Source: Gammaproteobacteria bacterium (lineage in GTDB: Bacteria; Pseudomonadota; Gammaproteobacteria; Pseudomonadales; Pseudohongiellaceae). From it: a stretch of DNA of 64,000 bases. Both the position numbers and the translations under genes were made by a program. The notes beneath the pieces were generated by a model, which was not told the origin of the DNA, made no database searches, and saw only the letters and a list, made by a program, of their open reading frames with translations. Shown here piece after piece: positions 18,838 to 47,295 of this stretch (position 1 is its first letter; every line of letters begins with the position of its first letter). Location of the stretch: the NCBI GenBank assembly GCA_029242705.1, contig JAQWTK010000096.1, forward strand, positions 42,148-106,147, in the 5' to 3' direction.

Positions 18838-18847
18838 GAGGAATAGT

Positions 18848-21570: not shown

Positions 21571-21629
21571 TTACTGGAATTGAACGTTTCTCACTTTATT
21601 AAGCATTAACATCAATTAATCCAGCAAAA

Positions 21630-23309: not shown

Positions 23310-23362
23310 TTTGCTAGTTCGAAATTTAGTTTCAAATATTTATATAAGGAAGAATTTGAATA

Positions 23363-24277
23363 ATGAGTGTCCTACTAAAAGATAAAGTTGTCATAGTAAC
23401 CGGGGCTGGTCGTGGTATTGGTCGAGGTATTGCGCTAATGGCGGCGGCTAATGGTGCAAAAGTTGTTGTTAACGATCTAGGTGGAGCAGAAGATGGTTCA
23501 GGGTCTGATGTTAGTCCTGCAGATGAAGTGGTTACGGAAATAAATTCCTTGGGAGGCGAGGCAATTTCTTCATATGCAAGCGTAACTGAATGGGATGCGG
23601 CGCACGATATTGTGGAAACAGCGGTAAATAATTTTGGGCGTGTCGATTGTGTTGTTAATAATGCCGGTAATCTTCGTGACGCAATTTTTCATAAAATGAC
23701 AGAAGAAGAATTTGACTCGGTTATAAATGTCCATCTAAAAGGAACCTTTAATGTTAGTAGGGCAGCTGCAACGCATTTTCGCGCTCAAACTAGTGGTTGT
23801 TTCGTTAATATGACATCTACTTCGGGATTAATTGGGAATTTTGGGCAGGCAAATTATGCTGCCGCGAAACTTGGCATAGTTGGACTTTCGAAATCTATGG
23901 CGCTTGATATGGGTCGATTTAGGGTCAGATCTAATTGTATTGCTCCATTTGCTTGGAGTCGGCTAATCGGAACCATTCCTACAAATACTGAAGAAGAAAA
24001 GGCTCGTGTAGAAAAAATTCAACAGATGACGCCGGACAAGATAGCACCATTAGCTATTGCTTTATGCAGTGATGCCGCAAAAGATGTTTCCGGCCAAATA
24101 TTTGGTGTTCGAAATAATGAAATATTTTTATTTAATCATAATAGACCTATTCGTTTCGCTCACACAGCAGAGGGCTGGTCGCCTGATTCAGTTCTAGAAA
24201 GAGTTATTCCGGCATTCAATTCGGACTTCTCTCCACTGGAAAGATCGGGTGATGTCTTTAGCTGGGATCCAATGTAA
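23363..24277 (+). CDS. Short-chain dehydrogenase/reductase, MFE-2/Hsd4A-like (probable (3R)-hydroxyacyl-CoA dehydrogenase)
   Basis: TGAGRGIGRG cofactor motif, NNAG, and a catalytic YAAAK. The 304 aa length and C-terminal extension resemble the dehydrogenase part of multifunctional enzyme type 2. Confidence 0.8.
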   Translation: MSVLLKDKVVIVTGAGRGIGRGIALMAAANGAKVVVNDLGGAEDGSGSDVSPADEVVTEINSLGGEAISSYASVTEWDAAHDIVETAVNNFGRVDCVVNNAGNLRDAIFHKMTEEEFDSVINVHLKGTFNVSRAAATHFRAQTSGCFVNMTSTSGLIGNFGQANYAAAKLGIVGLSKSMALDMGRFRVRSNCIAPFAWSRLIGTIPTNTEEEKARVEKIQQMTPDKIAPLAIALCSDAAKDVSGQIFGVRNNEIFLFNHNRPIRFAHTAEGWSPDSVLERVIPAFNSDFSPLERSGDVFSWDPM

Positions 24278-24297
24278 AAGTAATAAAGAAGAGTCAA

Positions 24298-25161
24298 ATG
24301 GCTATCGATCCTGAAAAATTATTAAACCGCGAGTTTGGAACCATTCGTGATACTTATACCGAAAAAGATTGCATCCTTTACGCCCTAGGCGTGGGTATGG
24401 GTCTTGACCCTTTAGACGAAGAGTGTCTTAAATTTGTATATGAAGACGGGCTTAAAATACTGCCAAGCCAATCGGTGATAATGGCTCACCCGGGGTTCTG
24501 GGCGAAGGAAGAAGATACTGGCGTTGACTGGGTAAAAGTACTTCACGCGGGGCAAGAAATTATTTTTCACAATCCTATACCTCCATCTGCTACCGTTGAA
24601 GCAACGACGCGGATAACAGAAGTAACAGATAAAGGTGAAAGGGTCGGGGCGCTAATCAATTCAGAACGAATAGTAAGTGATATCAAGACTGGCATGGAAA
24701 TCTGTACGCTGATAACGACTATTCTAGCCAGGGGTGATGGCGGATTTGGCGGTGAAAGGAAAGTCTCGGCTTTCAAGCCTGATGTAATACCCATGAGGGA
24801 CCCTGACGATATTTGCGACCTGCCCACCTTGCCTCAGCAAGCGTTACTCTACCGCCTTTCGGGCGATTTCAACCCATTGCATGCTTCACCTACAGTGGCA
24901 AGGAATGCTGGATTTAAAGCTCCAATACTTCATGGACTTTGTACGTTTGGGGTAATGACCCATGCTCTAATTAAAATGTGTTGCGACTATGATCCTAGCC
25001 GGTTCAAACGAATGCGACTGCGATTCTCAGCGCCAGTTTATCCTGGCGAAACAATTCGTACAGAAATTTGGCACAACGACAATGAGATTGCTTTCCGCTG
25101 TAAGTCGCTTGAGCAAGGAAAAATTGTAATCAACAATGGCTACTTGCTCGTTGAAGGGTAA
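24298..25161 (+). CDS. MaoC-like double hot-dog (R)-specific enoyl-CoA hydratase (hydratase 2)
   Basis: Hydratase-2 motif YRLSGDFNPLHASPTVA in the C-terminal hot-dog. The 287 aa length fits a double hot-dog. Confidence 0.85.
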   Translation: MAIDPEKLLNREFGTIRDTYTEKDCILYALGVGMGLDPLDEECLKFVYEDGLKILPSQSVIMAHPGFWAKEEDTGVDWVKVLHAGQEIIFHNPIPPSATVEATTRITEVTDKGERVGALINSERIVSDIKTGMEICTLITTILARGDGGFGGERKVSAFKPDVIPMRDPDDICDLPTLPQQALLYRLSGDFNPLHASPTVARNAGFKAPILHGLCTFGVMTHALIKMCCDYDPSRFKRMRLRFSAPVYPGETIRTEIWHNDNEIAFRCKSLEQGKIVINNGYLLVEG

Positions 25162-25174
25162 GTAGGAAAAGACA

Positions 25175-26386
25175 TTGCAGCATATTTTAAAGGGAATGCG
25201 AGTAGTAGAGGGCAGCGCTTTTATAGCGGCGCCCTCTGGCGGTATGACTCTGGCTCAGTTGGGGGCCGACGTTATTCGATTTGATCAAATCGGTGGCGGT
25301 ATAGATTATCATAGGTGGCCAATTACGGTTGAAGGCAAAAGCCTTTATTGGCATTCGCTTAACAAAGGTAAGCGATCAATTGCTATCGATTTACGCAATC
25401 CAACTGGGCGCGAACTTATCCAAAACCTCATTACCGATGCGGGTAAAAATAGCGGTCTATTTGTAACCAATTTTCCAGCAAAAGGATTCTTAGCAGATGA
25501 AGTGTTACGGGCTAAAAGGAATGACCTTATTTATATTAATCTAACCGGCGATCGTCATGGAGGAAGTGCGTTAGATTATACCGTAAACAGTAAAGTAGGT
25601 CTGCCCTATCTAAGTGGCGATGGGGGTAAACCTATAAATAACCCATTCCCAGCTTGGGATGTTATAGCGGGACAACAAATTGCCATCGCTCTTTTGGCGG
25701 CAGAGCGCCATCGGCGTCAATCTTCTGAAGGACAATTTGTAAAGTTAGCATTGGCTGATGTAGCTCTTGCAACTATGGGGCATCTCGGTTTTGTTGCTGA
25801 GGCGCAACTAAATGAAGAAGCAAGGCAACCGGTTGGTAATCATATTTATGGTACATTTGGCCATGATTTTAAGTGTAAAGATGGCCGTCGAGTGATGGTT
25901 GTCGGTGTAAGCCCTAATCAATGGAAATCCCTGATTAAAGTAACTAGCACTGAAGATCAAATAGCGTCTTTAGAAAAAAAGCTTAAGCTCAATTTTTCCA
26001 ATGAAGGAGATCGATTCAAGGCGAGGGAAGAAATATATAATCTTTTCGCCCCATGGTTTTCTGAGAATTCCTTTAATGAAGCTAAGATGGCTATGGAGGA
26101 TAATGGGGTTTGTTGGGGACCTTACCAAACGGTGTCAGAATTAATAAAAAGTGATCCAGACTGTTCGGTCAATAACCCGTTATTCTCGTTGATAAATCAA
26201 CCAGGTATTGGCGAATACCTAGTCCCGTCACAAGCGATTAAATTTACCGATCTTGAATCCGAAGCTCCTGCTCCTGCTCCTTTGCTTGGCCAACACACCG
26301 ATGAAATACTTTCAGAAATACTTAGTTTAGGCAGTGCTGAGATCGGTAAATTACATGATGAGAAAATTGTTGCCGGTCCAAAATAG
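25175..26386 (+). CDS. Family III CoA-transferase fold (CaiB/BaiF/alpha-methylacyl-CoA racemase family)
   Basis: N-terminal GMRVVEGS..AAPSGGMTLAQLGADVIRFD, collinear with the family. TTG start at 25175 with AGGAAA upstream; an alternative ATG lies at 25196. Confidence 0.72.
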   Translation: MQHILKGMRVVEGSAFIAAPSGGMTLAQLGADVIRFDQIGGGIDYHRWPITVEGKSLYWHSLNKGKRSIAIDLRNPTGRELIQNLITDAGKNSGLFVTNFPAKGFLADEVLRAKRNDLIYINLTGDRHGGSALDYTVNSKVGLPYLSGDGGKPINNPFPAWDVIAGQQIAIALLAAERHRRQSSEGQFVKLALADVALATMGHLGFVAEAQLNEEARQPVGNHIYGTFGHDFKCKDGRRVMVVGVSPNQWKSLIKVTSTEDQIASLEKKLKLNFSNEGDRFKAREEIYNLFAPWFSENSFNEAKMAMEDNGVCWGPYQTVSELIKSDPDCSVNNPLFSLINQPGIGEYLVPSQAIKFTDLESEAPAPAPLLGQHTDEILSEILSLGSAEIGKLHDEKIVAGPK

Positions 26387-26404
26387 TAAAATAACAAGTA
26401 AAGA

Positions 26405-28000
26405 ATGAGTACAAAAATTCACCAAAATGTTTCAATTGTTGATTTTCTTTTTGAGGCGGCGGAAGCATGGCCAAATAAACCAGCTGTTAGTTTTTTAGGT
26501 AAGACCCAATCCTGGCTAGAGACAAAGTATCGATGTCACGCGGCGGCCACATTGCTTTCCGATGCTGGCGTGCAACGTGGGCACCGGGTCGCATATTTAG
26601 GTTTGAATTCGAATGTTTGTTTTGAAAGCTATTACTCCCCGGCATTGATTGGCGCAGTTATGGTGCCTATTAACTATCGTTTATCTCTTAGGGAAATGAT
26701 TGAATGTGTGGAAGATTGTGAGCCGCGAGTATTAATTGTTGATGAAAATCACATTGAGCAAGCTCGCCAATTAAAAGATAGTTGCGAAAGCTTACAAACC
26801 ATTATTTTTTTTGGAGATGAAGTTACTCCAAATGGAATGACTTCCTATGAGGAAGGCGTTCAAAGAATTATCTCTAGTGGGGCGTATTGTGAGTTAGCTC
26901 CAAGCAAGGGTGATGAGATTGTTATCATTTTTTATACTGGAGGCACCACCGGTCGCTCAAAAGGTGTCATGTTGAGTAATATTAATTTTAAGGTTAATAC
27001 TGATTGCTCAGTTCCGCTTTACCGTATGCAGAGACATTGGGTCTTTCTTATAATAGGGCCTTTATTTCATCTTGCCGCTGGATCTCGCGTTTTTAGTAGT
27101 ACCGCACTTGGGGGTCACGCAGTGATCATGCCTAAATTTGATGTTGCCGGATTATTAGATGCAATTGATCGGTATAATATTAATTCGGCGACTCTCGTGC
27201 CGACAATGTACCAAATGATTTTAGATCATCCTCGGTTAGGGGAGTTTAATTTATCTTCTTTGAAGATGTTGGCTTCGGGGGCCGCACCATTATCTATTGG
27301 GCTCTTAGGTCGCATTGTAAAAGCGTTTCCCGAAACAGAATTCTTTCAAACATATGGTATGACGGAGGCCGCACCAATCCTTACAAGTCTCGATTCTAAA
27401 TATCAAGTGTTACATGGCCCAAATTCGCATAAACTGGGCTCAGTTGGTTTTCCGGTAGATCATATAGATCTTATCATTGCTAATGAGAGCGATCTCCCGT
27501 TACCTCCAAACAGTGTTGGTCAAATTTTGGCTAGAGGCCCCAATATTATGAAAGGATATTGGCAAATGCCTGAATTAACTAAAGAGGCATTGAAAGGGGG
27601 TTGGTTTCATACTGGAGATGCGGGCTATCTAGATGAGGATGGTTTTCTTTATTTAGAAGGTCGTGTTAAAGATATGATTGTGTCGGGTGGTGAGAATGTT
27701 TACCCCATTGAGGTAGAAAATATATTAGAGAACCACAATGCGATATACCAATGTGCAGTTATTGGAATCCCTCATGAAACGTGGGGAGAGGCTGTGCATG
27801 CCATAGTTGTTTTAAAGAAAGACTCCGAAGTTTCAGAGGGTGAACTCATAAGTTTTTGTAAGAACCAGATCGCGGGTTACAAATGTCCCGTGAGCATTAC
27901 CTTTCGGGAAGAACCGATGCCTTTATCTCCGATTAATAAAATTTTAAAAACGGAATTAAGGAAACCGTTTTGGAAGGGTCGAGATAGTTCTATCGTCTGA
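26405..28000 (+). CDS. AMP-dependent acyl-CoA synthetase/ligase
   Basis: AMP-binding motif YTGGTTGRSKGV, then GYLDEDGFLYLEGRVKDMIVSGGENVYP. Confidence 0.88.
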   Translation: MSTKIHQNVSIVDFLFEAAEAWPNKPAVSFLGKTQSWLETKYRCHAAATLLSDAGVQRGHRVAYLGLNSNVCFESYYSPALIGAVMVPINYRLSLREMIECVEDCEPRVLIVDENHIEQARQLKDSCESLQTIIFFGDEVTPNGMTSYEEGVQRIISSGAYCELAPSKGDEIVIIFYTGGTTGRSKGVMLSNINFKVNTDCSVPLYRMQRHWVFLIIGPLFHLAAGSRVFSSTALGGHAVIMPKFDVAGLLDAIDRYNINSATLVPTMYQMILDHPRLGEFNLSSLKMLASGAAPLSIGLLGRIVKAFPETEFFQTYGMTEAAPILTSLDSKYQVLHGPNSHKLGSVGFPVDHIDLIIANESDLPLPPNSVGQILARGPNIMKGYWQMPELTKEALKGGWFHTGDAGYLDEDGFLYLEGRVKDMIVSGGENVYPIEVENILENHNAIYQCAVIGIPHETWGEAVHAIVVLKKDSEVSEGELISFCKNQIAGYKCPVSITFREEPMPLSPINKILKTELRKPFWKGRDSSIV

Positions 28001-28651: not shown

Positions 28652-30199
28652 TTATAGTTTTTCTCTAGGGATGAGTTTGACTATTTGACCACCCGCATTG
28701 TGTTCAAACAGTAAATAAATGTCGCCGTTATAGCCTTGTTCGATATCCCTGACACGTCCGATTCCCTCGAATAATGTTTCTTTTTCAACGAAGCGATTAT
28801 TTTCAATATCGACGCGGAAAAGGCTGCGAGATTTTAACGAGCCAACAATAAAATCCCCATGCCAATTAGGAAAACTTTCGCTGTCGCTAATTATAAAACT
28901 CGAAACGGCGGGAGACGGAGTTAAATCAACTATTGGTTGCATAATATCTGATAATTCAAATGCAATACCGAGGCCGCGGCCATTTACTAGGCTTCCGTCA
29001 TAATGTAATCCCATTGAATGCAGAGGCCAACCATAATTTTCTGCGGGCAGTAATCGATTTATTTCATCGCCACCACGAGGCCCATGCTCACTCCCCCATA
29101 ATTCGTTATTAACTAGATCATATTCTAGTCCTTGAGGGCTCCGATGCCCCAAGGTATAGATACTTTCATATACGTTTTCTACTCCAACGTAAGGATTATC
29201 GCTGGGAATAGATCCATCGTCATTGACCCGATGTGTTTTCCCACATGGAGTCGTTAGGTCTTGAATTCCCCCGCCTTGACCTCCGCATTTCATGCCTAAT
29301 GTAAAATAAACATGCCCTCGATTATCAAAAGTAACTCGACCTCCAGCACCAACATCGCCAGCAAAAAAATAGTCTTTAAACCGTGCCTGCCAAATAATTT
29401 CTTGGTCTACCCAGGTTCCATCTTCTATTCGCCCACGAACGAGTCTGTTCATAGAGACTGCTCGTTGTTCGTTTCTGCTAGCTTCATTACATTCGTTGCA
29501 GCGGTGGCTATGATAAAGATACACCCAGCCGTTTTCCTCGTAATGGGGATGCAGCACAATATCAAATAGCCAACCCATTCCTCTTTCAATATCGATACGC
29601 GATTCGAGTCGATAGATGTCATCATATGCAGCCGGGGTACCTGTTATTAGTTCAGATTTCTCTCCAGTGGGACTAATAATACGGACGCCCTTAGTTTTTT
29701 CTGTGAGCAGAAGGCTGCCATCGGGTAAGGGAGCAATTGAAAATGGAAGTGGATCTAAATCTGAAGCAATAGACTGTAGCTGGAAATCATGTAGCGAAGT
29801 TTCAAAAACTTTGCGGGGAATTTCCATGGGAGCATCATAATTTGAAGTTACATAGCCGACATTCGCGCGAGTTTCGAGTATGTACATGGCCAAGCCGCGA
29901 ATTTCAATAGGAGATAAGAGGTCACGCCAGCTTGGCATGCCCGCTTCTATATAACCTTCGCTGATACTCGTAATAATATCACTTATAGATTGGCCATTGG
30001 CTAATTCGCCTCTCAAAGACGATCCCTGAGCAGCACCGGTTAGGTCTTCTCCATGACAGACCCCGCAGTTCTCTTGAAACATGAGACGAGATTCTGTTAC
30101 TCCAGAATACGCCTCCGCTTCATCTTGAGCGAAAGAATTGTTTGCGGTTAATAAACTTATAAGGGGGAGGAAAATCCTAAATAAGAGCTTTTTATACAT
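28652..30199 (-). CDS. Exported cytochrome c domain fused to a PQQ-dependent sugar (glucose/sorbosone) dehydrogenase beta-propeller
   Basis: Signal peptide, haem c motif CGVCHGED, then sGDH-family motifs GHRSPQGL and EHGPRGGDEIN. Confidence 0.8.
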   Translation of the reverse strand: MYKKLLFRIFLPLISLLTANNSFAQDEAEAYSGVTESRLMFQENCGVCHGEDLTGAAQGSSLRGELANGQSISDIITSISEGYIEAGMPSWRDLLSPIEIRGLAMYILETRANVGYVTSNYDAPMEIPRKVFETSLHDFQLQSIASDLDPLPFSIAPLPDGSLLLTEKTKGVRIISPTGEKSELITGTPAAYDDIYRLESRIDIERGMGWLFDIVLHPHYEENGWVYLYHSHRCNECNEASRNEQRAVSMNRLVRGRIEDGTWVDQEIIWQARFKDYFFAGDVGAGGRVTFDNRGHVYFTLGMKCGGQGGGIQDLTTPCGKTHRVNDDGSIPSDNPYVGVENVYESIYTLGHRSPQGLEYDLVNNELWGSEHGPRGGDEINRLLPAENYGWPLHSMGLHYDGSLVNGRGLGIAFELSDIMQPIVDLTPSPAVSSFIISDSESFPNWHGDFIVGSLKSRSLFRVDIENNRFVEKETLFEGIGRVRDIEQGYNGDIYLLFEHNAGGQIVKLIPREKL

Positions 30200-32201: not shown

Positions 32202-33272
32202 ATGAGATTCTCTACAAAATTATTTGTGAGCCTGAGTTTATTTGTGACAGGGACATTAGTCTTTGCACAAAATAATATTGGGCCAGTTAATGATTTACCA
32301 AACCCTTATCAAATCGTTACCGGATTTTTTAACATTCCAGCAGGTCGAGAATGGGGCGCGTCGAGCTCGATTGATGTTGATCCCGATGGTAAGTCGATTT
32401 GGATAGCCGAGCGTTGTGGTTCTGATTCCATAAGGGCGCAATACCCAATTAGGGGATGTGCGGAGTCTGATTTACCGGTTGTACTAAAATTCAATTCGGA
32501 TGGTGAGCTTGTCAGGAGCTTTGGTGGTGGGATCTTTGCGGTGCCCCATGGTTTTCACGTTGATCATGCTGGTAATATCTGGGTAACTGATGCTCCATTT
32601 ACTCTGCCGCCCGGTGTCGAGGGGAAGGGCCACATTGTGGTGAAATTTTCACCTGAAGGGGACCGCTTGCTAACACTAGGCGAGCCCGGTGTTACGGGTA
32701 GTGATGAAAATCATTTCAATATGCCTTCTGATGTTCATGTGTCACCAAATGGTGATATTTTCGTTGCTGATGGTCATGGCGGGGATAGCAATGGACGTAT
32801 TGTTAAATTTGATGCTCAAGGAAATTACTTGATGGAATGGGGCGAGCCTGGTACAGGCCCAGGTGAATTCGATGCGCCGCATGGGCTGGCTATGGACTCT
32901 CAAGGAAGGTTATTTGTTTCAGACCGTGGCAATAACCGTATACAAATATTTAATCAAAACGGAAGCTTGCTAGATACCTGGCAACAGTTTAGTCGGAATA
33001 GTGGTATTTATATTGATCGAAATGACATTCTTTATGCCGTAGATTCGGAATCAAACATCAGTCGTGGGCGCGGGGAATGGAGAAGAGGCATTCGAGTAGG
33101 TAGTGCGAGAACAGGAGAAGTACATTACTTCATTCCTGATCCGTTTGACGCTAACAATGGCCCCTATGCAGCCAGTTCAGGCGGCGAAGGTATAGTTGCG
33201 GACCATGATGGGATCATATATAGCGCAGAGGTTGGGCCGAGATCAATAAAGCGTTACTTTCGCTTTGAATAG
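32202..33272 (+). CDS. Exported NHL-repeat six-bladed propeller, peptidyl-alpha-hydroxyglycine lyase (PAL)-like
   Basis: Signal peptide and repeated NHL blades (PHGFHVDHAGNIWVTD; PSDVHVSPNGDIFVADGHG; PHGLAMDSQGRLFVSDRGNNRIQIF). Confidence 0.7.
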   Translation: MRFSTKLFVSLSLFVTGTLVFAQNNIGPVNDLPNPYQIVTGFFNIPAGREWGASSSIDVDPDGKSIWIAERCGSDSIRAQYPIRGCAESDLPVVLKFNSDGELVRSFGGGIFAVPHGFHVDHAGNIWVTDAPFTLPPGVEGKGHIVVKFSPEGDRLLTLGEPGVTGSDENHFNMPSDVHVSPNGDIFVADGHGGDSNGRIVKFDAQGNYLMEWGEPGTGPGEFDAPHGLAMDSQGRLFVSDRGNNRIQIFNQNGSLLDTWQQFSRNSGIYIDRNDILYAVDSESNISRGRGEWRRGIRVGSARTGEVHYFIPDPFDANNGPYAASSGGEGIVADHDGIIYSAEVGPRSIKRYFRFE

Positions 33273-34961: not shown

Positions 34962-35009
34962 ATACACAGTAATGCAATTATAACGGAAAATATTTCTATT
35001 AAAATTAAA

Positions 35010-35052
35010 GGTATTAGTGGCCTGATACTTACGTCACTAATACCTTTATTTT
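35010..35052. terminator. Bidirectional terminator between convergent genes
   Basis: Perfect 10-bp stem GGTATTAGTG / CACTAATACC (35010..35019 and 35035..35044). Flanked by A-rich sequence 5' and TTTATTTT 3'. Confidence 0.6.
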
Positions 35053-35095: not shown

Positions 35096-36265
35096 TTAGG
35101 AAATTGTAATTGTCCGAGTAAATTGCGCATAGTTCTCCCAGCGACTAGCTTTTTCCGGCATTTCTTCCTCCGTTAGTTGCACATGCCCATTTATGTCAGT
35201 AGCGCGAGAGACAAGTGTGTGATCTCCGGGGGATGGATCCCAGTCCATAGTAAAAAGCTTCCATGAATAACGGGTTGATCTTGGATCTATAGTTGCTTCA
35301 CGCCAAGGTTCTCCATCGATCTTTATTTCGACATTACGAAGAGGCGTACCATCAGTTAACACAAACCCCGTTATTTTGTGCTGTGTGCCGAGACGCGTGA
35401 CACGAACAATGGCTGATTTTAATTGAATTTTGGTAACGGAATTTTCTACCCACCTCTCTTCTCCGCCAATCATTTCTTTCTTTAAGGTTACATAATCGCG
35501 GCCCATAAAACGGCCCATGTAACGTCTGTCTTGGATATGAATTTGCGTCAACCACTTAACATTTGCCACACCGTAATAACCCGGTACAACTAAACGTAGT
35601 GGGCGGCCATGCCCTTGTGGCAAATCTTCACCATTCATTTCGAGGGCTAGTATATTCTCTTCTCGCATCGCTTCCGCGACTGGTAGACTTCGAGCAAAAG
35701 ATTGCTCGACTTCGGTATCTCTGTTGGGAATTTCCTCAGTCCCGCTATCCGCGCCAAAAAATACTACTTCCGCACCGTCAGAATTGACTCCGCTTGCATT
35801 AAGAATGTCTCTCAGTCGAACTCCTTTCCAATTCGCATTGCCAACTAGACCTTGAAATCTACCGGTATTGTTTCCACCACATTCGAAACCAGCATCAATA
35901 TCGAACTGACTCATGTTTTGTAAATCTTCTAATGTGTATTCAAGCTCTTGATCTACTAACCCGGTTACCTTAAGCCTATAGTTATCTATATCCATCTCCG
36001 GCTGGCCATAATGTTGGACAACGTAGAAGTCCATATTGTCCGTATAGAAATCAGAAATCATTCTAGTATCTAACCAATGCGGTGCTCCTGGTCGAGCGGG
36101 GCCTCTGCTATAGTCTTCTGGCATATCACTAAATGATACTAGTTCTTCTCCTTGCGCTAAGGCAGGAAGTATCCAATGGGGCACGCTAGCCACTGCACTC
36201 GCCGAGACGCCTGCGCCGATTGTCTTCTTAATTGCCTCTCGTCTATTAATTTTTTCATCGTTCAT
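35096..36265 (-). CDS. Tat-exported sulfite-oxidase-fold (SorA-like) molybdopterin oxidoreductase
   Basis: Twin-arginine signal (NRREAIKK..ALAQ), Mo-ligand Cys context FECGGNN, PLRLVVPGYYGVANVKWL as in SorA, and a C-terminal Ig-like dimerisation domain. Confidence 0.8.
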   Translation of the reverse strand: MNDEKINRREAIKKTIGAGVSASAVASVPHWILPALAQGEELVSFSDMPEDYSRGPARPGAPHWLDTRMISDFYTDNMDFYVVQHYGQPEMDIDNYRLKVTGLVDQELEYTLEDLQNMSQFDIDAGFECGGNNTGRFQGLVGNANWKGVRLRDILNASGVNSDGAEVVFFGADSGTEEIPNRDTEVEQSFARSLPVAEAMREENILALEMNGEDLPQGHGRPLRLVVPGYYGVANVKWLTQIHIQDRRYMGRFMGRDYVTLKKEMIGGEERWVENSVTKIQLKSAIVRVTRLGTQHKITGFVLTDGTPLRNVEIKIDGEPWREATIDPRSTRYSWKLFTMDWDPSPGDHTLVSRATDINGHVQLTEEEMPEKASRWENYAQFTRTITIS

Positions 36266-36292
36266 GGTCAGTTCCTCTAGTCTTTTTGTTCT

Positions 36293-36724
36293 TCAGTCTT
36301 TTGTATTTGAGAAATCGTAAGCTTTCCAATGGTCGGCCCGATATTGATTGGGGTCAGCTAAAACTTTAGATCGAGCCTTTGTAACTTCCTCAACTGTCAG
36401 TTTTTTGAAATCACTTGGAAGAGTTTTAGCATTGAACTCATCTAACATCCAATTCAATACATTAGTTAATTGCGCATTTGAAATCGGAGCATGCGCAGAA
36501 CCAGGCACTCTCGCTAAATAGCCTCGCATAGCTTCTACACTCATCATATAACCAAGTTCGTCGCGTAAGGTGGGGACATTGGGCGGGTTACCTTCGCCAA
36601 GTGGGCGATGGCATCCACTGCAATATAATAAATAATTTGTTCGCGGGCTAGCTGCAAAAACACTCGAGGTCAGGAGTGTGAAGACGACTGCTAAAAATGT
36701 AAGCCAAATCATCTTATCTTTCAT
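36293..36724 (-). CDS. Exported monohaem c-type cytochrome
   Basis: Signal peptide and a single CSGCH haem-binding motif. 143 aa. Lies between mauA and the molybdoenzyme on the same strand. Confidence 0.75.
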   Translation of the reverse strand: MKDKMIWLTFLAVVFTLLTSSVFAASPRTNYLLYCSGCHRPLGEGNPPNVPTLRDELGYMMSVEAMRGYLARVPGSAHAPISNAQLTNVLNWMLDEFNAKTLPSDFKKLTVEEVTKARSKVLADPNQYRADHWKAYDFSNTKD

Positions 36725-36728
36725 TGTT

Positions 36729-37265
36729 CTATTCGTCAGACGCGCCTATTACTAGAGAGACCGTACAGTGATAGCTAGTATTTTCTGTGCCAAAGCACCA
36801 GAGGACAGTACTGCTATTACTATTGAAATATACTGGTTTATCACCTTCAGTGTTGTGACAACTACAGCGAGCGCATACGGCTTTTCCACAACAATCGTTG
36901 TATGACATCAGGTAGTCCCGTCCGTCAACTGGATTAGTACAGGTTCCAACCCAAGTTATAGGCGAGGCCTCTGATCCAGGAGGGCAAGAAGTATAGGTCC
37001 CCCCGCAGCATGTGCAGAGTGTTCCGCTCATAGCGCAATAGCGCCAGTAATCGCAGCTTTGTGGATCGCCGATTTCTTCTATAGATTCTTGTGCAAACGA
37101 ACGAGACACTGGTAGTAATGGGAAGGAGGCTGCACCAGCGACGAACATACCCAGTCTGGAAAGGAAGTGCCTTCTTGACAACTTACGAGCCATAGTCAGG
37201 GTAGTGCGTCGAGCGTGATCATCTATCCAGTAGTATGCTTTATCGATTATTTTGTCTATTTTCAT
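36729..37265 (-). CDS. mauA: TTQ amine dehydrogenase small (light) subunit
   Basis: Tat-type leader (SRRHFLS), then QSCDYWRYC..CPPGS..ITWVGTC..YNDCCG..NTEG..PVY..VLWCFG..YHCT. This is collinear with Paracoccus MauA, including both TTQ Trp positions. Confidence 0.88.
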   Translation of the reverse strand: MKIDKIIDKAYYWIDDHARRTTLTMARKLSRRHFLSRLGMFVAGAASFPLLPVSRSFAQESIEEIGDPQSCDYWRYCAMSGTLCTCCGGTYTSCPPGSEASPITWVGTCTNPVDGRDYLMSYNDCCGKAVCARCSCHNTEGDKPVYFNSNSSTVLWCFGTENTSYHCTVSLVIGASDE

Positions 37266-37936
37266 GACGTCTGTTCCACTGCTGATGTTTCGTATTTTGA
37301 GTCGACAGAGTCCAGTTGAGTACTAACATATTCTTGTACAGTAGCTACACCAGTATCCATGGACTCGATTAAACTTTCTAGATGCTCTCTTGTATTGACG
37401 AGGCCTTTGCTTTTTAAGGTCCCGTCAGGTCCGATTAGTACGGCAAACGGAAGTTTACTCACTTGATAATACATACCCACGGATTGAGATACAAAATAAG
37501 GATAGGTCTCTATCTTTAAATCTTTAATATAAGTTTTGTGTTGTTCGATATCTTCGCCATCACTACCGAATGCCAAGCTCAATCGGTTATTCTCAGATTT
37601 TGCTAAGGATTTTGCAGTTGGCACTAGGGTCTTGCATACTGGGCAAGTTGGCGAAATAAATAATATCAGAGACGCAAGATTTTCTTTATTGGCGCCACCA
37701 ATCGTAATAGTTTCGCCTTGCAATGAATTCGTTTGGATATCTTTTGTAATTTCGCCCACCTTTGGTCCCGTCGTTGGTTGTAAGGCTCCGGCTGGAGCGA
37801 CACGCTCATGAAGAATACCAACTTGCCGAGTTAGCGCGAATACGAGTACCGATAAAAAGACGACCATAATCCAAAGAATTATGGTCGAGACAAATAAGGC
37901 TTCAACCACTAACTTTTCTCCAGGAGTCAATAGCAT
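37262..37936 (-). CDS. mauD: MauD-like thioredoxin-fold accessory protein
   Basis: N-terminal TM anchor and the thioredoxin-like motif SPTCPVCK. Sits between mauE and mauA. ATGA overlap with mauA. Confidence 0.75.
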   Translation of the reverse strand: MLLTPGEKLVVEALFVSTIILWIMVVFLSVLVFALTRQVGILHERVAPAGALQPTTGPKVGEITKDIQTNSLQGETITIGGANKENLASLILFISPTCPVCKTLVPTAKSLAKSENNRLSLAFGSDGEDIEQHKTYIKDLKIETYPYFVSQSVGMYYQVSKLPFAVLIGPDGTLKSKGLVNTREHLESLIESMDTGVATVQEYVSTQLDSVDSKYETSAVEQTS

Positions 37937-38462
37937 TTCGATTGCTGAGCAATTGGTTGGTAGCTAGGTAAATAAACAAGATGCTTATCAAGCCTATAAA
38001 AATACTGAAATAATCCAACAAGCCCAGATCTCTCGTTGTAGAAGGAAATACCGCCATAAGCGCCACAATAATTAAAGTGAAATTTCTCAGAACTAAGCCG
38101 GTAGAAAGGCGCTGATTACCGTTATCTTTATTTCCCGCGAACGCAGCATAACTGCAGCCACAATCTATATAACTTCTTCCTTTGTAAAGATTAATTGAGA
38201 TCGCTATAACATAAATTGAGAGCACCAAAGCACTCAATAAAGGAACCAAGGCTAGGTTGTTAAACAACCAGCCAATCCCGAGGAACAATTCAGTTAAACC
38301 GATTCCGATAGCAAAAAAACCTACTCCTCTCGAGGGAAGCACCTTATATTCACTAACAATTTGTTGAAATTGTAAGCGGTTAGACAATTTATGAGCACCC
38401 CCAATCAAAAATAGGAGGCTGAAGGCTATCGATACTAGGGTTTGAATGGCAGGGTCTATCAT
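37902..38462 (-). CDS. mauE: MauE-like membrane accessory protein
   Basis: Hydrophobic protein with four or more TM segments, 186 aa. Sits between mauB and mauD, and its 3' end overlaps mauD. Confidence 0.7.
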   Translation of the reverse strand: MIDPAIQTLVSIAFSLLFLIGGAHKLSNRLQFQQIVSEYKVLPSRGVGFFAIGIGLTELFLGIGWLFNNLALVPLLSALVLSIYVIAISINLYKGRSYIDCGCSYAAFAGNKDNGNQRLSTGLVLRNFTLIIVALMAVFPSTTRDLGLLDYFSIFIGLISILFIYLATNQLLSNRNAIDSWRKVSG

Positions 38463-38474
38463 TGGTCATTTATC

Positions 38475-39575
38475 TCATAAATCTTCAAATGCAGTGGACC
38501 CCGGAATTTGTATTGACCGCTCATAGGACAAGCTGAGAGCGTCATACACATGGGAGCCTCCTTCATTATCTACTACTAAAAGCTTTGGATTATCTTCTTG
38601 TGTAACCAAGATACTATTAGCTGGTGCTTCCAATTCAATTTTGCTTATACGACGTTGTGTGTTCGAATCTAACACCCATATTTCGGTCCCAGGCTCATGG
38701 TGCGAATCTACTGGGCCGTCGTGCATTGCCACATAAATTAAGCCAGTATCATGATGCGCAGTAATAATTTCGTTTCGACCTCCTGGGCGCCAATTTGCCT
38801 CTGACTCCAGGCGAGGATTCCAACCTTCGTCGATTATTATCTCATCGTCATCTGTGGCGACATGAAAGATTGTGCCGGCATGGGTAATTAGAAACCATCC
38901 GTTTGCGCTAGACGCAACTCGATCAAATACAGCATCTTCAAGTACGCTAAAGAAAACTTCGCTGCGGACCCTATTTTCTTCGAAGCCGCTTAAATCTAGC
39001 TGGATCAATTGTAGGGTGCCATCGCCACATACTTGCAGAAAGTCATTGTCGGAAACAGGCATAATTACTGCGCAACCAGGGGTTGATGCTTCGTAGGTAA
39101 ATATTCGATCTTCTACATCAACTATCGTCACCGAGTGGCCAGGGTTCATATTAAGAACCGCCAAATGTCGGCCATTATTAAGCAGCCCTAGATGGCTTCG
39201 GACCTGCAACCTTGCCATGTAATTGGGAATTTCAATCTCTGCGACCGGCCTTAGGTTTTCGTAGTCATAAATAGCAATAATGTCTGTTCGTTCACCGTGC
39301 ACGCCTCGTGAGAGATAAGACTCAGCGGCATAAAATTCTTCTCGTGGGGGCCAAAAGGTTACCGCTGGAGTATATCGGGAGAGCGATAACATACCTTGCA
39401 TCTCTCCGTTTGTTGCATCGAAAATGTAGCCACCATTCCTGGTCGTGCCAATAAACCAGTTTTTGCCGCGTTCGGGCATGGTTTCGACGCTAATTTCTTC
39501 AGGGGTGATTTGTGCTATTCCTAGCGGTGAAATAAGCAACAGACCTGCAGCGAGTGGGGCGATAAAGCGCATCAA
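38475..39575 (-). CDS. mauB: TTQ amine dehydrogenase large (heavy) subunit, seven-bladed propeller
   Basis: Signal peptide. GERTDIIAIYDYENLRPVAEIEIP and NWRPGG segments parallel Paracoccus MauB ([30 protein letters not shown]). Confidence 0.85.
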   Translation of the reverse strand: MMRFIAPLAAGLLLISPLGIAQITPEEISVETMPERGKNWFIGTTRNGGYIFDATNGEMQGMLSLSRYTPAVTFWPPREEFYAAESYLSRGVHGERTDIIAIYDYENLRPVAEIEIPNYMARLQVRSHLGLLNNGRHLAVLNMNPGHSVTIVDVEDRIFTYEASTPGCAVIMPVSDNDFLQVCGDGTLQLIQLDLSGFEENRVRSEVFFSVLEDAVFDRVASSANGWFLITHAGTIFHVATDDDEIIIDEGWNPRLESEANWRPGGRNEIITAHHDTGLIYVAMHDGPVDSHHEPGTEIWVLDSNTQRRISKIELEAPANSILVTQEDNPKLLVVDNEGGSHVYDALSLSYERSIQIPGSTAFEDL

Positions 39576-39830
39576 TTTTCTCCTTACCTTTTCAATTCCG
39601 CGAGATCTAAAGCTTCTCGTATTCTGGACTTGTGAGTGTATCCTAAATATTTCTCATTGGCTCTAGTCCTGATAGGGTTTTCAGGGTACATTTTATGTTC
39701 TTGAATATGACTATTCCGTGCTAAAGCAAAGAGAGCTTTATTTCAGCAAAAGCACTCTCCATTGTTTTTGTGTCATTAAGAATCTTCGTATACTTAGTGT
39801 GAATAAGATTAATAATGCGGTATCTAACTT

Positions 39831-40997
39831 ATGAATATTTCAGTGTCAGTAATTGAACGTAATCGTAACTCTTTCCGTTTTGGAGCGTTAATTAGCATCG
39901 TTCTATTCCTCTATATAGGAATTAATTATGGGTGGAGGCAGGGATCATTGTTCCTCGTTGGAATTTCAGCAGGTGCAGTGCTTTATCATGCCGCTTTTGG
40001 TTTCACCTCAGCTTGGAGGGAAGTTGTTAATACCGGCAGAGGTGCAGGCCTTAGAGCCCAAATGATTATGCTCGCATGTACGGTATTGGTCTTTACGCCG
40101 TTAATAGCGCAGGGCGAATTATTTGGAATGGGTCTGAGAGGATCTGTGGCTCCACTAAATATAGCGGTTATTGCTGGCGCATTTATGTTTGGTGTTGGAA
40201 TGCAGCTCGGTGGAGGCTGTGCATCGGGTACTTTGTATACGGTTGGTGGCGGTAATAGTCGTATGCTTATAACGTTAGCAGCTTTTATAGCCGGATCCCT
40301 TTTGGGAACTTGGCAGTGGCAACTATGGCAAGGGATGCCGGGAATTGAGCCAATAGCATTAACTCGAAATTTTGGTTTGTTCGGGGGGGTATTGATAAGC
40401 TTTTTTCTATTCGCGGCCGTGTGGTATGCGACGATTATTTATGAACGAAGCCGTCACTCAGAGCTAGTTAACGAGGCTCGGTCAGACTTTTCTGTTTTAC
40501 GCGGTCCTTGGCCATTGCTTGCTGGAGCTTTTGCTCTGGTGCTAGTTCAAGTTGCCACATTGTTATTGGCAGGCCGGCCATGGGGTGTAACATCTGCATT
40601 TGCGCTTTGGGGAGCCAAGATTTCGGGGTTATTGGGCCTCGATGTTTCCGCATGGCCTTATTGGAGTCGTTCAGGGCCTTCTGCTTCTCTCGACCAGAGT
40701 ATATTCAGCGATATTACTTCAGTTATGAATATTGGAATAATACTTGGAGCCTTAGGTGCGGCGAGCTTGGCCAGGAAATTCTCGCCCTCTGCTAAGCTCC
40801 CGTTGGGCCAAATAATTGCCGCAATATTAGGCGGACTGTTGCTGGGCTATGGAGCCAGGATTGCCTTTGGCTGCAATATCGGCGCATATTTCAGCGGCAT
40901 CGGTTCGACTAGCTTACACGGATGGCTTTGGTTTATAGCCGCTTTTGTAGGGAGCACATTAGGCGCGCGAATTAGACCGAAATTTGGGTTGGGCTAG
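39831..40997 (+). CDS. YeeE/YedE-family sulfur/selenium-compound transporter
   Basis: Polytopic membrane protein with the two family Cys motifs LGGGCASGTLY and IAFGCNIGAYF. Confidence 0.8.
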   Translation: MNISVSVIERNRNSFRFGALISIVLFLYIGINYGWRQGSLFLVGISAGAVLYHAAFGFTSAWREVVNTGRGAGLRAQMIMLACTVLVFTPLIAQGELFGMGLRGSVAPLNIAVIAGAFMFGVGMQLGGGCASGTLYTVGGGNSRMLITLAAFIAGSLLGTWQWQLWQGMPGIEPIALTRNFGLFGGVLISFFLFAAVWYATIIYERSRHSELVNEARSDFSVLRGPWPLLAGAFALVLVQVATLLLAGRPWGVTSAFALWGAKISGLLGLDVSAWPYWSRSGPSASLDQSIFSDITSVMNIGIILGALGAASLARKFSPSAKLPLGQIIAAILGGLLLGYGARIAFGCNIGAYFSGIGSTSLHGWLWFIAAFVGSTLGARIRPKFGLG

Positions 40998-41068
40998 TCG
41001 TTAAGACCTAAAATATTTACTAAGAGATTTTAGTGCCTTACATAAACAAAAATAGAGTGCTTGTGATC

Positions 41069-42130
41069 ATGATAAAACTTATAACTATATTGCTCTCTGC
41101 TAGTTTAGTTTCTCCGGCCATTTTTGGACAGCAACCAGAATTCAAATTAGATGTTGATTGGCCGAAAATTCCTTTCAGTGATAATTGGTTAACTGGTGGG
41201 CTTGGAGGGATGTGTATCGATAATAGAGATCATGTGTATCTTCTAAATCGGCAAAATGTTGTTGCAGCTGATCTTGATGGAGCGCGATTGGCACCTCCTG
41301 TTATTGAATTAAACCCTCAAGGTGAGGTTGTGCGTGGATGGGGGGACCCTGAAGTTATTGGGCCGCGCGCGCATGACTGCCATGTTGAAGAGGATGGCAG
41401 CATCTGGATTGTTGCAGCAGGAACTGGGCATATCCAAAAATATTCAAATGATGGAAGCGAAATGTTAATGCAAATCGGTTTATCTGGGACATTTGACTCT
41501 TCTAATGGAACTCGAGAAGGGGCTCCCTTGAATTCTAATGCAGCGCAGTTTTTCTTGCCGTCGGCCTTAGACGTCGATGAGTTTTCTGGAGACATTTATG
41601 TGGCTGACGGCGAATTGCCGGGCGGAAATTCTAGAATAGCAGTGCTAGATAGGGATGGTAATTTTTTGCGACAGTGGGGGTTATATAGGACGGAATCAGA
41701 TGAAGATATTACGCCTTTGCCGCACTGCTTACGATTGTCGAATGATGGTTTGGTTTATGTATGTGATCGTGAGGCAGATAGGATTCAAGTATTTGATAGA
41801 CAGGGTAACTTTGTAAGGAATATCTTTGTGGGATTTGAGTCAGTTTCGCCCGCAGAAGGGCGCAGCAGTGGAAATAGAGGGTCGGCAGTAGTTCTTGCGT
41901 TTTCGCATGATCAAGAGCAGGAGCACATGTTCGTCATAAATCAAAACAGTGTAACGATTGAAGTTTTGGATCGGCAATCTGGTCGGACTATTACAGGGTT
42001 TGGAGATGGTCCGGGGCGCTATCGTGGACAGTTCACCCTGCCACATGGAATCGGAGTTGACTCTTTGGGTAACGTCTATATTGCGGAGCAAGAAGGCAGG
42101 CGTGTCCAGAAATATTTGCTAATAAGATAA
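41069..42130 (+). CDS. Exported NHL-repeat propeller (second PAL-like paralogue)
   Basis: Signal peptide MIKLITILLSASLVSPAIFGQ and NHL blades (PSALDVDEFSGDIYVADG; PHCLRLSNDGLVYVCDREADRIQVF; PHGIGVDSLGNVYIAEQEGRRVQKY). The track start at 41033 is GTG. Confidence 0.65.
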   Translation: MIKLITILLSASLVSPAIFGQQPEFKLDVDWPKIPFSDNWLTGGLGGMCIDNRDHVYLLNRQNVVAADLDGARLAPPVIELNPQGEVVRGWGDPEVIGPRAHDCHVEEDGSIWIVAAGTGHIQKYSNDGSEMLMQIGLSGTFDSSNGTREGAPLNSNAAQFFLPSALDVDEFSGDIYVADGELPGGNSRIAVLDRDGNFLRQWGLYRTESDEDITPLPHCLRLSNDGLVYVCDREADRIQVFDRQGNFVRNIFVGFESVSPAEGRSSGNRGSAVVLAFSHDQEQEHMFVINQNSVTIEVLDRQSGRTITGFGDGPGRYRGQFTLPHGIGVDSLGNVYIAEQEGRRVQKYLLIR

Positions 42131-45348: not shown

Positions 45349-47295
45349 ATGAGAAAAAGCATGTTGTTAATTTCTCACAAAACGCTATTTCAATTAGTTG
45401 TCCTCATTTTCTTAGTAACGATATCAAAAGTTTTTGCGACTGACTCTAACAATTATGACTGGAAACATTATGGGAATGATCTGGGCCATACTAAGTATGC
45501 ACCGCTAGACCAAATCAATCGCGAAAATGTTGCTAATTTACAAATTGAATGGAATTGGGAGTCTGTAGATAACCAAGCCGTAATAGAAAGGCCTCAATAT
45601 GTACCCTCCGGCTTTAAGGCTACACCCATAACTCGGGACGGTGTGCTTTATGTCAGTACGCCACTTGGCCATATTGCTGCCATAGATGCTCGTACAGGTG
45701 CTCAAAAATGGATATTTAATACTAATACCTGGGAGCATGGTAGACCCGCGAATAATGGGTTTAATCATCGCGGAGTAACCTTCTGGGAAAAACCTGGCCT
45801 GCTGGGTGCAGAACCGAGGATCATTATGACTACGGCTAATGCGTTTCTTTGGTCGATTGATGCAGAGACAGGCGAGCCGGATGAAAGTTTTGGAATAAAT
45901 GGTAAAACAGATCTAACGCTAGGGTTGGGGCGTGAAGTCGATAGGTCGATGATCGCTCACTCAGCCGCTGTGCCAATAATTGGTGATACGGTTATCGTGG
46001 GCTCCGTTGTTTATGATCAGCCAATGTTTGATATGGTGCCGGAGAAACTAACGGATCTACCACCAGGACATGTTAGGGGTTTCGATCTAAATACCGGTAA
46101 ACAAAAGTGGATTTTCCACACGATTCCTGAGCGAGGAGAATACGGTAATGCTACCTGGGAGGATGACTCTTGGAAAGTGACGGGTGCCGCTAATATTTGG
46201 ACAATGATTTCTGCCGATGAAGAGCTTGGATATGTGTATCTTCCTATTGGCAATCCAGGTAACGATTTTTATGGAGGTCAGAGATTAGGGGATAATTTAT
46301 TTGGCACCAGCTTAGTTGCGTTAAATGCAGAAACGGGAGAACGCGTTTGGCATTATCAGATCGTACATCATGAATTATGGGATTATGACCCGCCTGCTGC
46401 TCCAACGTTGGTAGATATAACGGTAAGTGGGAAGGACATCAAAGCAGTTGCGATGGTTTCCAAGCAAGCATTTATCTACATATTTGATCGTATTACTGGT
46501 AAACCAGTTTGGCCAATAGTCGAAAAACCTGTCCCTTCTAGCACAGTGCCGGGCGAGCGAGCTTCTTTTACACAACCTTTTCCGACCAGACCCGCCGCTT
46601 TTGACTTACAGGGTATTAATGAAGAGACGCTGATAGACTTTACTCCTGAGCTTAGGCAAGAAGCACTGGAAATAGTTAGTGAATTTGATCACGGCGGGTT
46701 ATATACACCGCCTTCTTTAAAAGGTGCGATTGCACTTCCAGGTTGGACAGGGGGTGCAGAATGGAGTGGCGCCGCTTTTGACCCAGAAACTTCTATGTAC
46801 TACATTCCATCGGTCACAAACCCAATTGTTATTCAACTCGCAGAAAACAACCCCAGCGAGACCGAATTTGCATATCGAAGAGATGGTGTGAGAACGATTA
46901 GCGGGCCTCAAGGATTGCCTTTAACAAAACCTCCCTATGGAAGAATTTCAGCCGTAAATTTAGATACTGGTGATTACGAATGGGTAAGACCTAATGCAGA
47001 AGGTATTCGCCAACGCATAATCGATTTGGGGATAGATGATCCTGGCCCCGTTGGTATTCCAATCGTGGCACCTCTATTGGTAACCAAAACATTATTATTT
47101 CAAGCCATAACCGACGGTGTCCCATTATTAAGGGCTATGGATAAAACCACAGGTGAAACAATTGCTGAGATAGAATTGCCAGGTATTCCGCAGGGCGCAC
47201 CTATGACTTACATGTTGGATGGGAAACAATATATTGCAATTACCTGCGGAGGCGGTGCGGACGCCAGATTGCTAGGGCTCGCTCTTCCTAATTAA
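45349..47295 (+). CDS. Exported PQQ-dependent dehydrogenase, eight-bladed propeller (glucose/quinate-type quinoprotein family)
   Basis: Signal peptide and a typical N-terminus WKHYGNDLGHTKYAPLDQINRENVANLQIEW. Repeated W-motif blades. 648 aa. Confidence 0.8.
   Translation: MRKSMLLISHKTLFQLVVLIFLVTISKVFATDSNNYDWKHYGNDLGHTKYAPLDQINRENVANLQIEWNWESVDNQAVIERPQYVPSGFKATPITRDGVLYVSTPLGHIAAIDARTGAQKWIFNTNTWEHGRPANNGFNHRGVTFWEKPGLLGAEPRIIMTTANAFLWSIDAETGEPDESFGINGKTDLTLGLGREVDRSMIAHSAAVPIIGDTVIVGSVVYDQPMFDMVPEKLTDLPPGHVRGFDLNTGKQKWIFHTIPERGEYGNATWEDDSWKVTGAANIWTMISADEELGYVYLPIGNPGNDFYGGQRLGDNLFGTSLVALNAETGERVWHYQIVHHELWDYDPPAAPTLVDITVSGKDIKAVAMVSKQAFIYIFDRITGKPVWPIVEKPVPSSTVPGERASFTQPFPTRPAAFDLQGINEETLIDFTPELRQEALEIVSEFDHGGLYTPPSLKGAIALPGWTGGAEWSGAAFDPETSMYYIPSVTNPIVIQLAENNPSETEFAYRRDGVRTISGPQGLPLTKPPYGRISAVNLDTGDYEWVRPNAEGIRQRIIDLGIDDPGPVGIPIVAPLLVTKTLLFQAITDGVPLLRAMDKTTGETIAEIELPGIPQGAPMTYMLDGKQYIAITCGGGADARLLGLALPN

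Follow-up and report, generated by a model that had tools for sequence, protein, structure and literature searches.

A predicted tryptophan tryptophylquinone amine dehydrogenase operon of the aau type in Pseudohongiellaceae, with an added SorA-like molybdoenzyme and a divergent YeeE/YedE-family transporter

A stretch of 64,000 nucleotides from a gammaproteobacterial genome of the family Pseudohongiellaceae (GenBank assembly GCA_029242705.1, contig JAQWTK010000096.1, positions 42,148 to 106,147 of the forward strand) contains a cluster of genes related to those for the amine dehydrogenases that carry the cofactor tryptophan tryptophylquinone (TTQ). We refer to this whole stretch of 64 kb as the window. 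To our knowledge only two TTQ enzymes have been characterised, one being methylamine dehydrogenase (MADH) and the other aromatic amine dehydrogenase (AADH). All open reading frames (ORFs) of at least 80 amino acids in the window were scanned against Pfam, and NCBIfam profiles were also used. The minus strand carries, between 39575 and 35096, a head-to-tail row of six ORFs in the order mauB-E-D-A, cytochrome, molybdoenzyme. An initial annotation of the same DNA had described six minus-strand genes, packed or overlapping, and we found all six where it had placed them. The features of the locus are the following.

38475-39575, minus strand: heavy (alpha) subunit (PF06433, E 7.6e-30; matches to AADH and MADH in the PDB)
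37902-38462, minus strand: MauE/AauE-like integral membrane accessory protein (PF07291, E 2.2e-18)
37262-37936, minus strand: MauD/AauD-like thiol-disulfide oxidoreductase with CPVC at residues 98-101 (TIGR02661, 180.4 bits; thioredoxin-like Pfam matches)
36729-37265, minus strand: light (beta) subunit precursor (PF02975, E 4.7e-48)
36293-36724, minus strand: monohaem cytochrome c of the orf-2 type, 143 amino acids, single CSGCH (weak PF00034 match; homology to aau orf-2)
35096-36265, minus strand: SorA-like molybdoenzyme with a predicted sulfite-oxidase fold (PF00174 molybdenum-binding domain, E 5.2e-47)
35001-35047, minus strand: hairpin, likely operon terminator (13-bp perfect stem, 35047-35035/35019-35007, followed by AAUUUU)
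39576-39830, no strand: 255-bp intergenic region between divergent genes, where the promoters of the operon and of the transporter gene presumably lie
39831-40997, plus strand: YeeE/YedE-family (Sulf_transp) membrane transporter (PF04143, E 6e-65)

The six genes are tightly spaced. The gaps are 12 bp between mauB and mauE, 4 bp between mauA and the cytochrome gene and 27 bp between the cytochrome and molybdoenzyme genes, and the other pairs overlap (mauE/mauD by 35 nt, mauD/mauA in an ATGA). Since the 5' end of the mauD ORF reaches those 35 nt into mauE, its true start is possibly further downstream. The likely true start of mauB is the ATG at 39572, which has AAGGAGA ahead of it, and the molybdoenzyme gene has a GAGGA ribosome-binding site about 8 nt before its ATG. 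A terminator scan found no terminator-like site inside the operon, including the cytochrome/molybdoenzyme junction. The likely terminator lies between the convergent molybdoenzyme and SIR2 genes and its RNA fold has an energy of -21.4 kcal/mol (z -3.0). A promoter scan of the divergent region gave no confident sigma-70 match and nothing above shuffled expectation. Because the gaps are short or overlapping, no terminator interrupts the genes and the hairpin occurs only 3' of the molybdoenzyme gene, the natural reading of the spacing and terminator position is that all six genes would be co-transcribed.

The heavy chain carries a Sec-type signal peptide. Its matches in the PDB are to AADH, with 126 bits (E 1e-35), and to MADH, with 81-83 bits (E 1e-22). 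The light chain can be aligned through its whole mature domain with those of MADH and AADH that have been crystallised (E 1e-38 to 1e-43). In a three-way alignment the two TTQ tryptophans, W105 and W156, are kept in the light chain, as are Asp72, the catalytic Asp124 and Thr168. The leader of this subunit has a twin-arginine motif (SRRHF). The light chain contains 14 cysteines, including an extra pair (C87 and C131) that is common to AADH and is serine in P. versutus MADH. The residues adjacent to TTQ (Tyr165, Phe158-Gly159 and Leu155) match or resemble those of P. versutus MADH, not those of AADH. Both subunits miss the NCBIfam equivalog cut-offs for MADH (amicyanin), the heavy chain with 110 vs 454 bits (TIGR02658) and the light chain with 159 vs 197 bits (TIGR02659), and the subunits of AADH itself also fall below these cut-offs. 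In mau and aau systems, production of the disulfide-rich light subunit requires MauE and MauD. The MauD score given above is slightly under the cut-off of 188.6 bits, and a MauE-type gene holds the same position in related loci. Judged by these alignments, the locus is predicted with confidence to encode a member of the TTQ amine dehydrogenase superfamily of MADH and AADH, with a beta-propeller heavy chain.

The initial annotation had placed the locus with the aau type and not the mau type, on the ground that the aau cluster of Alcaligenes faecalis is aauBEDA followed by a small monohaem cytochrome ORF. For direct comparison we retrieved the light chain of A. faecalis AADH together with the locus that encodes it (L086), and the layout matches that description. 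The gene order is orf-1, aauB, aauE, aauD, aauA, a 166-aa orf-2, an AraC-type gene, orf-4 and hemE. Like the window, this locus has the B-E-D-A order, a homologous monohaem cytochrome as the fifth gene and a light chain with 14 cysteines, and it is without mauF, G, C, J, L, M, N and cupredoxin genes. Over 96 residues the window cytochrome shares 33% identity with A. faecalis aau orf-2 (E 3e-21), and it also matches the 161-aa protein encoded after mauA in the equivalent cluster of Cupriavidus basilensis (E 3e-24). The fifth gene is homologous, therefore the aau-like label rests on more than missing genes. Unlike the window, the A. faecalis locus has no molybdoenzyme and no YeeE-type transporter; among its neighbours are genes for an aldehyde dehydrogenase, for a Phenol_MetA_deg protein and for a regulator of the AraC type.

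The mau clusters of Paracoccus and Methylobacterium (mauFBEDACJG(L)MN) also share features with the window, namely the B-E-D-A core, the TTQ residues and the twin-arginine leader of the light chain. The window differs from them in having no amicyanin, MauG or MauM/N in 64 kb and no mauF-like ORF in the operon, in falling below the MADH equivalog cut-offs and in the two extra cysteines of the light chain. The orf-2 homology, the 14 cysteines of AADH type and a heavy chain nearer to AADH bear out the earlier placement, and they support the view that the cluster has the aau architecture and is not of the mau type.

This likeness concerns the cluster and does not extend to orthology of the enzyme. 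The heavy chain is 28% identical to A. faecalis AauB and the mature light chain 54% identical to the A. faecalis AADH light chain, and Tyr165 and Phe158 are MADH-like. A neighbour-joining tree was built from mature light chains with a single MADH sequence as outgroup, so that it shows clade separation and not branching order. In this tree the marine and sediment clade that includes the window stands apart from the betaproteobacterial AADH clade. Because of the 28% heavy-chain identity and the separate light-chain clade, we judge that AauA and AauB are not orthologues of the window subunits. The subunit phylogeny that had been suggested earlier thus gives the light chains a clade of their own and speaks against AADH orthology.

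Relatives of the window light chain are numerous. A genome scan with light-chain patterns, using one genome per species, confirmed at least 582 relatives, and the best 80 were examined with flanks of 10 kb. These best 80 all come from metagenome-assembled genomes (MAGs), which belong to Pseudohongiella and Pseudohongiellaceae, SAR86-labelled bacteria, Woeseiaceae, other Gammaproteobacteria and Vicinamibacteria. The arrangement mauB-E-D-A-cytochrome was found by tblastn with the window proteins in all genome loci with room for it (78/78). A reverse check in metagenomes started from the cytochrome and covered 80 contig loci with flanks of 4 kb; mauA is directly upstream in all of those with enough sequence (73/73). 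The five-gene core mauB-E-D-A-cytochrome is fixed, and because the cytochrome is linked to mauA throughout both samples it is a dedicated component of this cluster type. The operon had been described initially as extended by a cytochrome and a molybdoenzyme. The second half of this description is apt, since the molybdoenzyme is a lineage-specific addition, but the cytochrome belongs to the core.

At 90% identity the window light chain clusters with others in a group of 712 sequences, some of them from Tara Oceans, for which the source names are "methylamine dehydrogenase (amicyanin) light chain". In a study of North Sea MAGs, the mau genes of HTCC2089 and Pseudohongiellaceae are listed as methylamine utilisation (PMC8371827). 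Literature searches on the aau cluster, on AADH with MauG and on marine mau genes returned no paper on this clade beyond that study.

The slot after the cytochrome gene is occupied by other genes in sister lineages. It holds an Asp/Asn beta-hydroxylase-family gene or a gamma-glutamyltranspeptidase gene, and in another arrangement a gene for a protein of 160-180 amino acids without a Pfam match, followed by DUF885. In the Pseudohongiella-type loci L010, L014, L015, L017, L023, L025, L028 and L030 a 232-aa PF05118 gene is directly after the cytochrome gene (L023:11080-11778). A PF05118 hydroxylase beside a cofactor-bearing enzyme might be a maturation factor. The gammaproteobacterial locus L039 has two TTQ-dehydrogenase clusters, at 8865-11000 and 16768-20500; the first has no detectable mauE or mauD and the second has two cytochrome matches.

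Neither a CCP_MauG domain nor a cupredoxin nor a MauM/N-type ferredoxin turned up in the Pfam scan of the window. The haem motif CxxCH occurs in just two window proteins, once in each. A true MauG orthologue used as a tblastn query gave no match in the window, and tblastn with hand-typed azurin and amicyanin queries gave no match in the window or in 88 loci. For mauF, mauJ and mauL no sequence search was made; no ORF is left over in the operon, and upstream of mauB lies the divergent PF04143 gene. The earlier statement that mauF, amicyanin mauC and MauG are absent from the window is thereby upheld for mauC and MauG, and for mauF it is a judgement from the lack of an additional ORF, not from a sequence search.

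A dihaem protein adjoins the cluster in 6/80 related loci (L044, L045, L055, L057, L078 and L082), whose hosts are Vicinamibacteria, Woeseiaceae and one unclassified gammaproteobacterial MAG. The L078 protein (10963-12099) matches the crystallised P. denitrificans MauG over its full length (E 4e-115, 387 bits), far better than it matches any cytochrome c peroxidase. It scores only 80 bits with NCBIfam TTQ_mauG, so that its identification rests on the match to the crystallised protein. The remaining genome loci, approximately 74 with 10 kb flanks, have no local MauG, and the same is true of the 80 metagenome loci with their 4 kb flanks, of the window and of A. faecalis L086. We infer that MauG is used in at least part of the clade. 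Because true MauG orthologues adjoin six of the 80 related loci, the likeliest route to TTQ would be completion by a MauG encoded elsewhere in the genome, which is an assumption. The search for mauG-like dihaem proteins and cupredoxins, which the initial annotation had proposed, was empty for the window and gave MauG, but no cupredoxin, among related loci, and the question it had raised of how TTQ matures without a local MauG is less open than it appeared.

The cytochrome has a Sec signal, a CSGCH haem motif with His39 and a c552-like fold. Among solved structures Thermus c552 alone is related to it in sequence and in fold, with a template modelling (TM) score of 0.53-0.57 for a model of predicted local distance difference test (pLDDT) 80. 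The 20-residue hairpin that precedes the axial Met69 of c552 is missing from the window cytochrome. The invariant Arg67-x-Tyr69 is shared with c552, where it does not act as a ligand, and Tyr69 was for this reason rejected as the distal ligand of a His/Tyr pair. The cytochrome is presumed to be the electron acceptor of the dehydrogenase, because no simpler role offers itself for a c-type haem protein of the periplasm that is strictly linked to a quinoprotein without a cupredoxin.

The molybdoenzyme has a motif for twin-arginine translocation (Tat), RREAIKK, and its predicted molybdenum ligand, Cys129, aligns with Cys104 of SorA. The match to SorA has an E-value of 1e-32, or 2.8e-42 with a family profile, at about 26-30% identity. 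The next matches are Thermus sulfite dehydrogenase, plant sulfite oxidase, SorT and SoxC. An AlphaFold model (pLDDT 77) has the two-domain sulfite-oxidase fold and superposes on SorA with a TM score of 0.70-0.73, and its 28 best fold matches (28/28) are to SoxC or to enzymes that oxidise sulfite. SorA His57 and Tyr236 have their counterparts in the window enzyme, whose active-site loop is shorter than that of SorA by 10 residues. SorAB of Starkeya novella, and also SorT, Thermus sulfite dehydrogenase and SoxCD, are periplasmic, Tat-exported and found beside a c-type cytochrome, as is predicted for the window enzyme. Unlike in SorAB, the adjacent cytochrome here is of the TTQ-linked orf-2 type, not the SorB type. 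The molybdoenzyme family is large and marine (5685 proteins at E ≤1e-20). In L090 a homologue follows the genes for a classical cytochrome c and for an enzyme of the xanthine dehydrogenase type, and its pairing with a classical cytochrome c speaks for a cytochrome c acceptor. Our best guess from these alignments and models is that the molybdoenzyme is a sulfite-type dehydrogenase that would donate electrons to a c-type cytochrome. A DUF169 gene adjoins molybdoenzyme homologues whether mau genes are present or not, in L004 (9262-9951), L005, L013 and 6 metagenome loci.

PF04143 covers the whole of the divergently encoded transporter. YeeE proteins have three conserved cysteines, and no cysteine of the transporter aligns at the position of the first of these; its GGGCASG and GCNIG motifs do align with the solved Spirochaeta YeeE. 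The PF04143 domain and these cysteine motifs are common to the window protein and to the YeeE/YedE (TsuA) group of thiosulfate and selenium-related transporters. The protein is far below the TsuA and YedE cut-offs, and there is no adjacent YeeD/TusA partner gene.

The molybdoenzyme and transporter genes occur together. A molybdoenzyme gene follows the cytochrome gene in 9/86 mauA loci (the window, L001, L006-L009, L013, L088 and L089). The divergent PF04143 gene is upstream of mauB in 8/9 of these and is three genes further upstream in L001; none of the genome loci without a molybdoenzyme gene has it. Among 45 metagenome loci with enough flank, 14 have both genes, 31 have neither and 0 are discordant. 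The neighbours outside the seven-gene block vary, with NHL and CoA-transferase genes in the window, CRISPR-Cas in L089 and GAF/CSD in L088. In L089 a type II CRISPR-Cas system (10160-14632; a 1068-aa HNH/RuvC protein, Cas1 and Cas2) lies about 1 kb downstream of the molybdoenzyme gene, with one small ORF between, and the flanks of the block are therefore not conserved. The molybdoenzyme and transporter were apparently gained together, in one sub-lineage and in a single event, and they may be regarded as a co-expressed accessory module.

Two further ideas about this module were considered and set aside. The molybdoenzyme was rejected as a TTQ-maturation factor or obligatory partner of the dehydrogenase, as it is present in 9/86 genome and 18/60 metagenome loci and has homologues without mau genes. 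A substrate-pocket signature was sought in the light and heavy chains of loci with a molybdoenzyme vs closely related loci without it, and only the conservative hydrophobic differences I270 vs F and I280 vs L were found.

We consider it probable that the window carries a six-gene operon for a periplasmic TTQ amine dehydrogenase of aau architecture, with MauG encoded elsewhere and an added molybdoenzyme and transporter module. The enzyme would oxidise a primary amine, not specifically methylamine, to an aldehyde and ammonium. Electrons from TTQ would pass to the dedicated cytochrome, not to a cupredoxin, and from there to the respiratory chain, and the final formation of TTQ would depend on the MauG supposed to lie elsewhere in the genome. 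The molybdoenzyme would be a periplasmic sulfite-type oxyanion dehydrogenase and the divergent YeeE/YedE-type protein its sulfur-anion transporter. Both would be co-expressed with the dehydrogenase, probably feeding the same cytochrome, and would be dispensable for amine oxidation itself. Their gain may be placed in the sub-lineage of marine Pseudohongiellaceae-like Gammaproteobacteria to which the window belongs.

Several observations weigh against parts of this proposal. The substrate of the clade is not legible from sequence. MauG is missing from the 64 kb of the window and from the 4-10 kb flanks of about 150 related loci, so MauG-dependent maturation is assumed. The cytochrome family has no conserved methionine or second histidine column across 67 members (the window and 66 homologues, L001-L087), the best methionine columns reaching 0.52 and 0.49, and 13/67 members have no methionine in the core domain at all. 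Met69 of c552 aligns on an invariant Pro74-Gly75, which is odd for a simple electron carrier. In the molybdoenzyme family the position of SorA Arg55 is Val, Leu or Ile in 14/14 aligned members and that of Arg109 is variable, and the window enzyme is far below the NCBIfam cut-offs for SorA (173 vs 600 bits), SorT and SoxC. Because these arginines are not conserved and the equivalog cut-offs are missed, sulfite is only a default guess for the substrate. Molybdoenzyme homologues without mau genes or cytochromes exist, for example alone in L002 and L003. The loci with a molybdoenzyme are exactly those with a cytochrome at least 70% identical to that of the window, and because they form one clade the association of molybdoenzyme, transporter and dehydrogenase counts as one evolutionary event. 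Its strict co-occurrence was for this reason down-weighted as statistical evidence of coupling.

The same co-occurrence invites another explanation, in which all seven genes of the block would serve a single pathway that handles an amine containing sulfur, for example hypotaurine, taurine or aminomethanesulfonate. Oxidative deamination in the periplasm would yield sulfite at once or in a later step, the molybdoenzyme would oxidise it with the shared cytochrome as acceptor, and transport of the sulfur anion would fall to the YeeE-type protein. This would suit the strict pairing of the molybdoenzyme and Sulf_transp genes round the core while the outer flanks differ, the tight operon spacing and the 28 sulfite-oxidising or SoxC fold matches. 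Felux and colleagues (J Bacteriol, 2013) are said to have found that sulfinoacetaldehyde derived from hypotaurine desulfinates spontaneously, and Xsc would then be unneeded in such a pathway. However, the association amounts to one event in one clade, and with I270/F and I280/L as the only differences that set the molybdoenzyme-bearing chains apart there is no sign of a new substrate pocket. The window also has no xsc, pta, tauXY or aldehyde dehydrogenase gene, molybdoenzyme homologues stand alone elsewhere and SorA Arg55 is not conserved. We consider this pathway unlikely.

The enzyme could also be a genuine methylamine dehydrogenase, serving methylotrophy or nitrogen acquisition. The public names in the 712-member cluster and the North Sea study (PMC8371827), which reads the mau genes of Pseudohongiellaceae as methylamine utilisation, both take this line, and the TTQ-adjacent residues Tyr165, Phe158-Gly159 and Leu155 are closer to P. 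versutus MADH than to AADH. Against this, both chains miss the MADH equivalog cut-offs by the margins given above and the heavy chain is nearer to AADH. Neither the window nor about 160 loci have amicyanin or mauM/N, nor an ORF for mauF, mauJ or mauL, which were unsearched by sequence, and the Pfam scan saw no tetrahydrofolate, tetrahydromethanopterin (H4MPT) or formaldehyde-handling genes in the 64 kb. A true methylamine dehydrogenase is in our view quite unlikely.

The least probable alternative gives the orf-2-type haem protein another role. It would be the catalyst or a co-factor of TTQ maturation without MauG, with an open or unusual distal site, and not (only) an electron carrier, or else a new redox partner of quinoprotein dehydrogenases with non-canonical ligation. 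As a maturation catalyst it would explain why most such clusters carry no MauG, including the window, A. faecalis L086 and most loci, and it would agree with the universal linkage of the cytochrome to mauA and with the anomalies at the haem: no conserved methionine or histidine ligand, members without a core methionine, and Met69 falling on Pro74-Gly75. It is very unlikely, as the six loci with a true MauG still keep the cytochrome, Arg67 and Tyr69 are also present in c552, the fold looks like that of an ordinary class I cytochrome, MauG may be encoded elsewhere and a single haem is unable to form the bis-Fe(IV) state of MauG (PMC6405878). The explanation that we prefer remains an aau-type dehydrogenase operon with MauG elsewhere and an added module.

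Other genes in the window were also recorded. Paralogous NHL-repeat beta-propeller proteins (33% identity) flank the operon region at 32202-33272 and 41033-42130, and the pair recurs in L006-L008. A PQQ-type glucose/sorbosone dehydrogenase with a fused N-terminal cytochrome c domain is encoded at 28652-30199, and a separate PQQ alcohol-dehydrogenase-type protein at 45349-47295 (PQQ, pyrroloquinoline quinone). The window therefore has several periplasmic quinoprotein dehydrogenases. Two class I/II aminotransferases (PF00155), at 52013-53158 and 55735-57102, have N-termini resembling twin-arginine signals (RREFGKVALG... and DRRTFMKNAG...); exported aminotransferases dependent on pyridoxal phosphate would be unusual. 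The block at 17698-28000 contains two acyl-CoA dehydrogenases, a ChsH2-like OB-fold/thiolase-like pair, a short-chain dehydrogenase/reductase, a MaoC hydratase, a family III CoA-transferase and an AMP-ligase, and it resembles clusters for steroid or branched side-chain beta-oxidation.

The dehydrogenase belongs to a third TTQ clade beside MADH and AADH, one that is large, marine and very abundant. For members of this clade the name "methylamine dehydrogenase (amicyanin)" is probably wrong. The methylamine label is thus unsafe, and marine methylated-amine turnover that is inferred from these genes should be viewed with caution. The extension of the dehydrogenase core by a molybdoenzyme and a transporter is a new gene combination. 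The haem ligation of the dedicated cytochrome appears to be non-canonical, and this anomaly is the most interesting loose end. The clade offers a tractable system in which to ask which redox partner replaces the cupredoxins, and where TTQ maturation is encoded when there is no local mauG.

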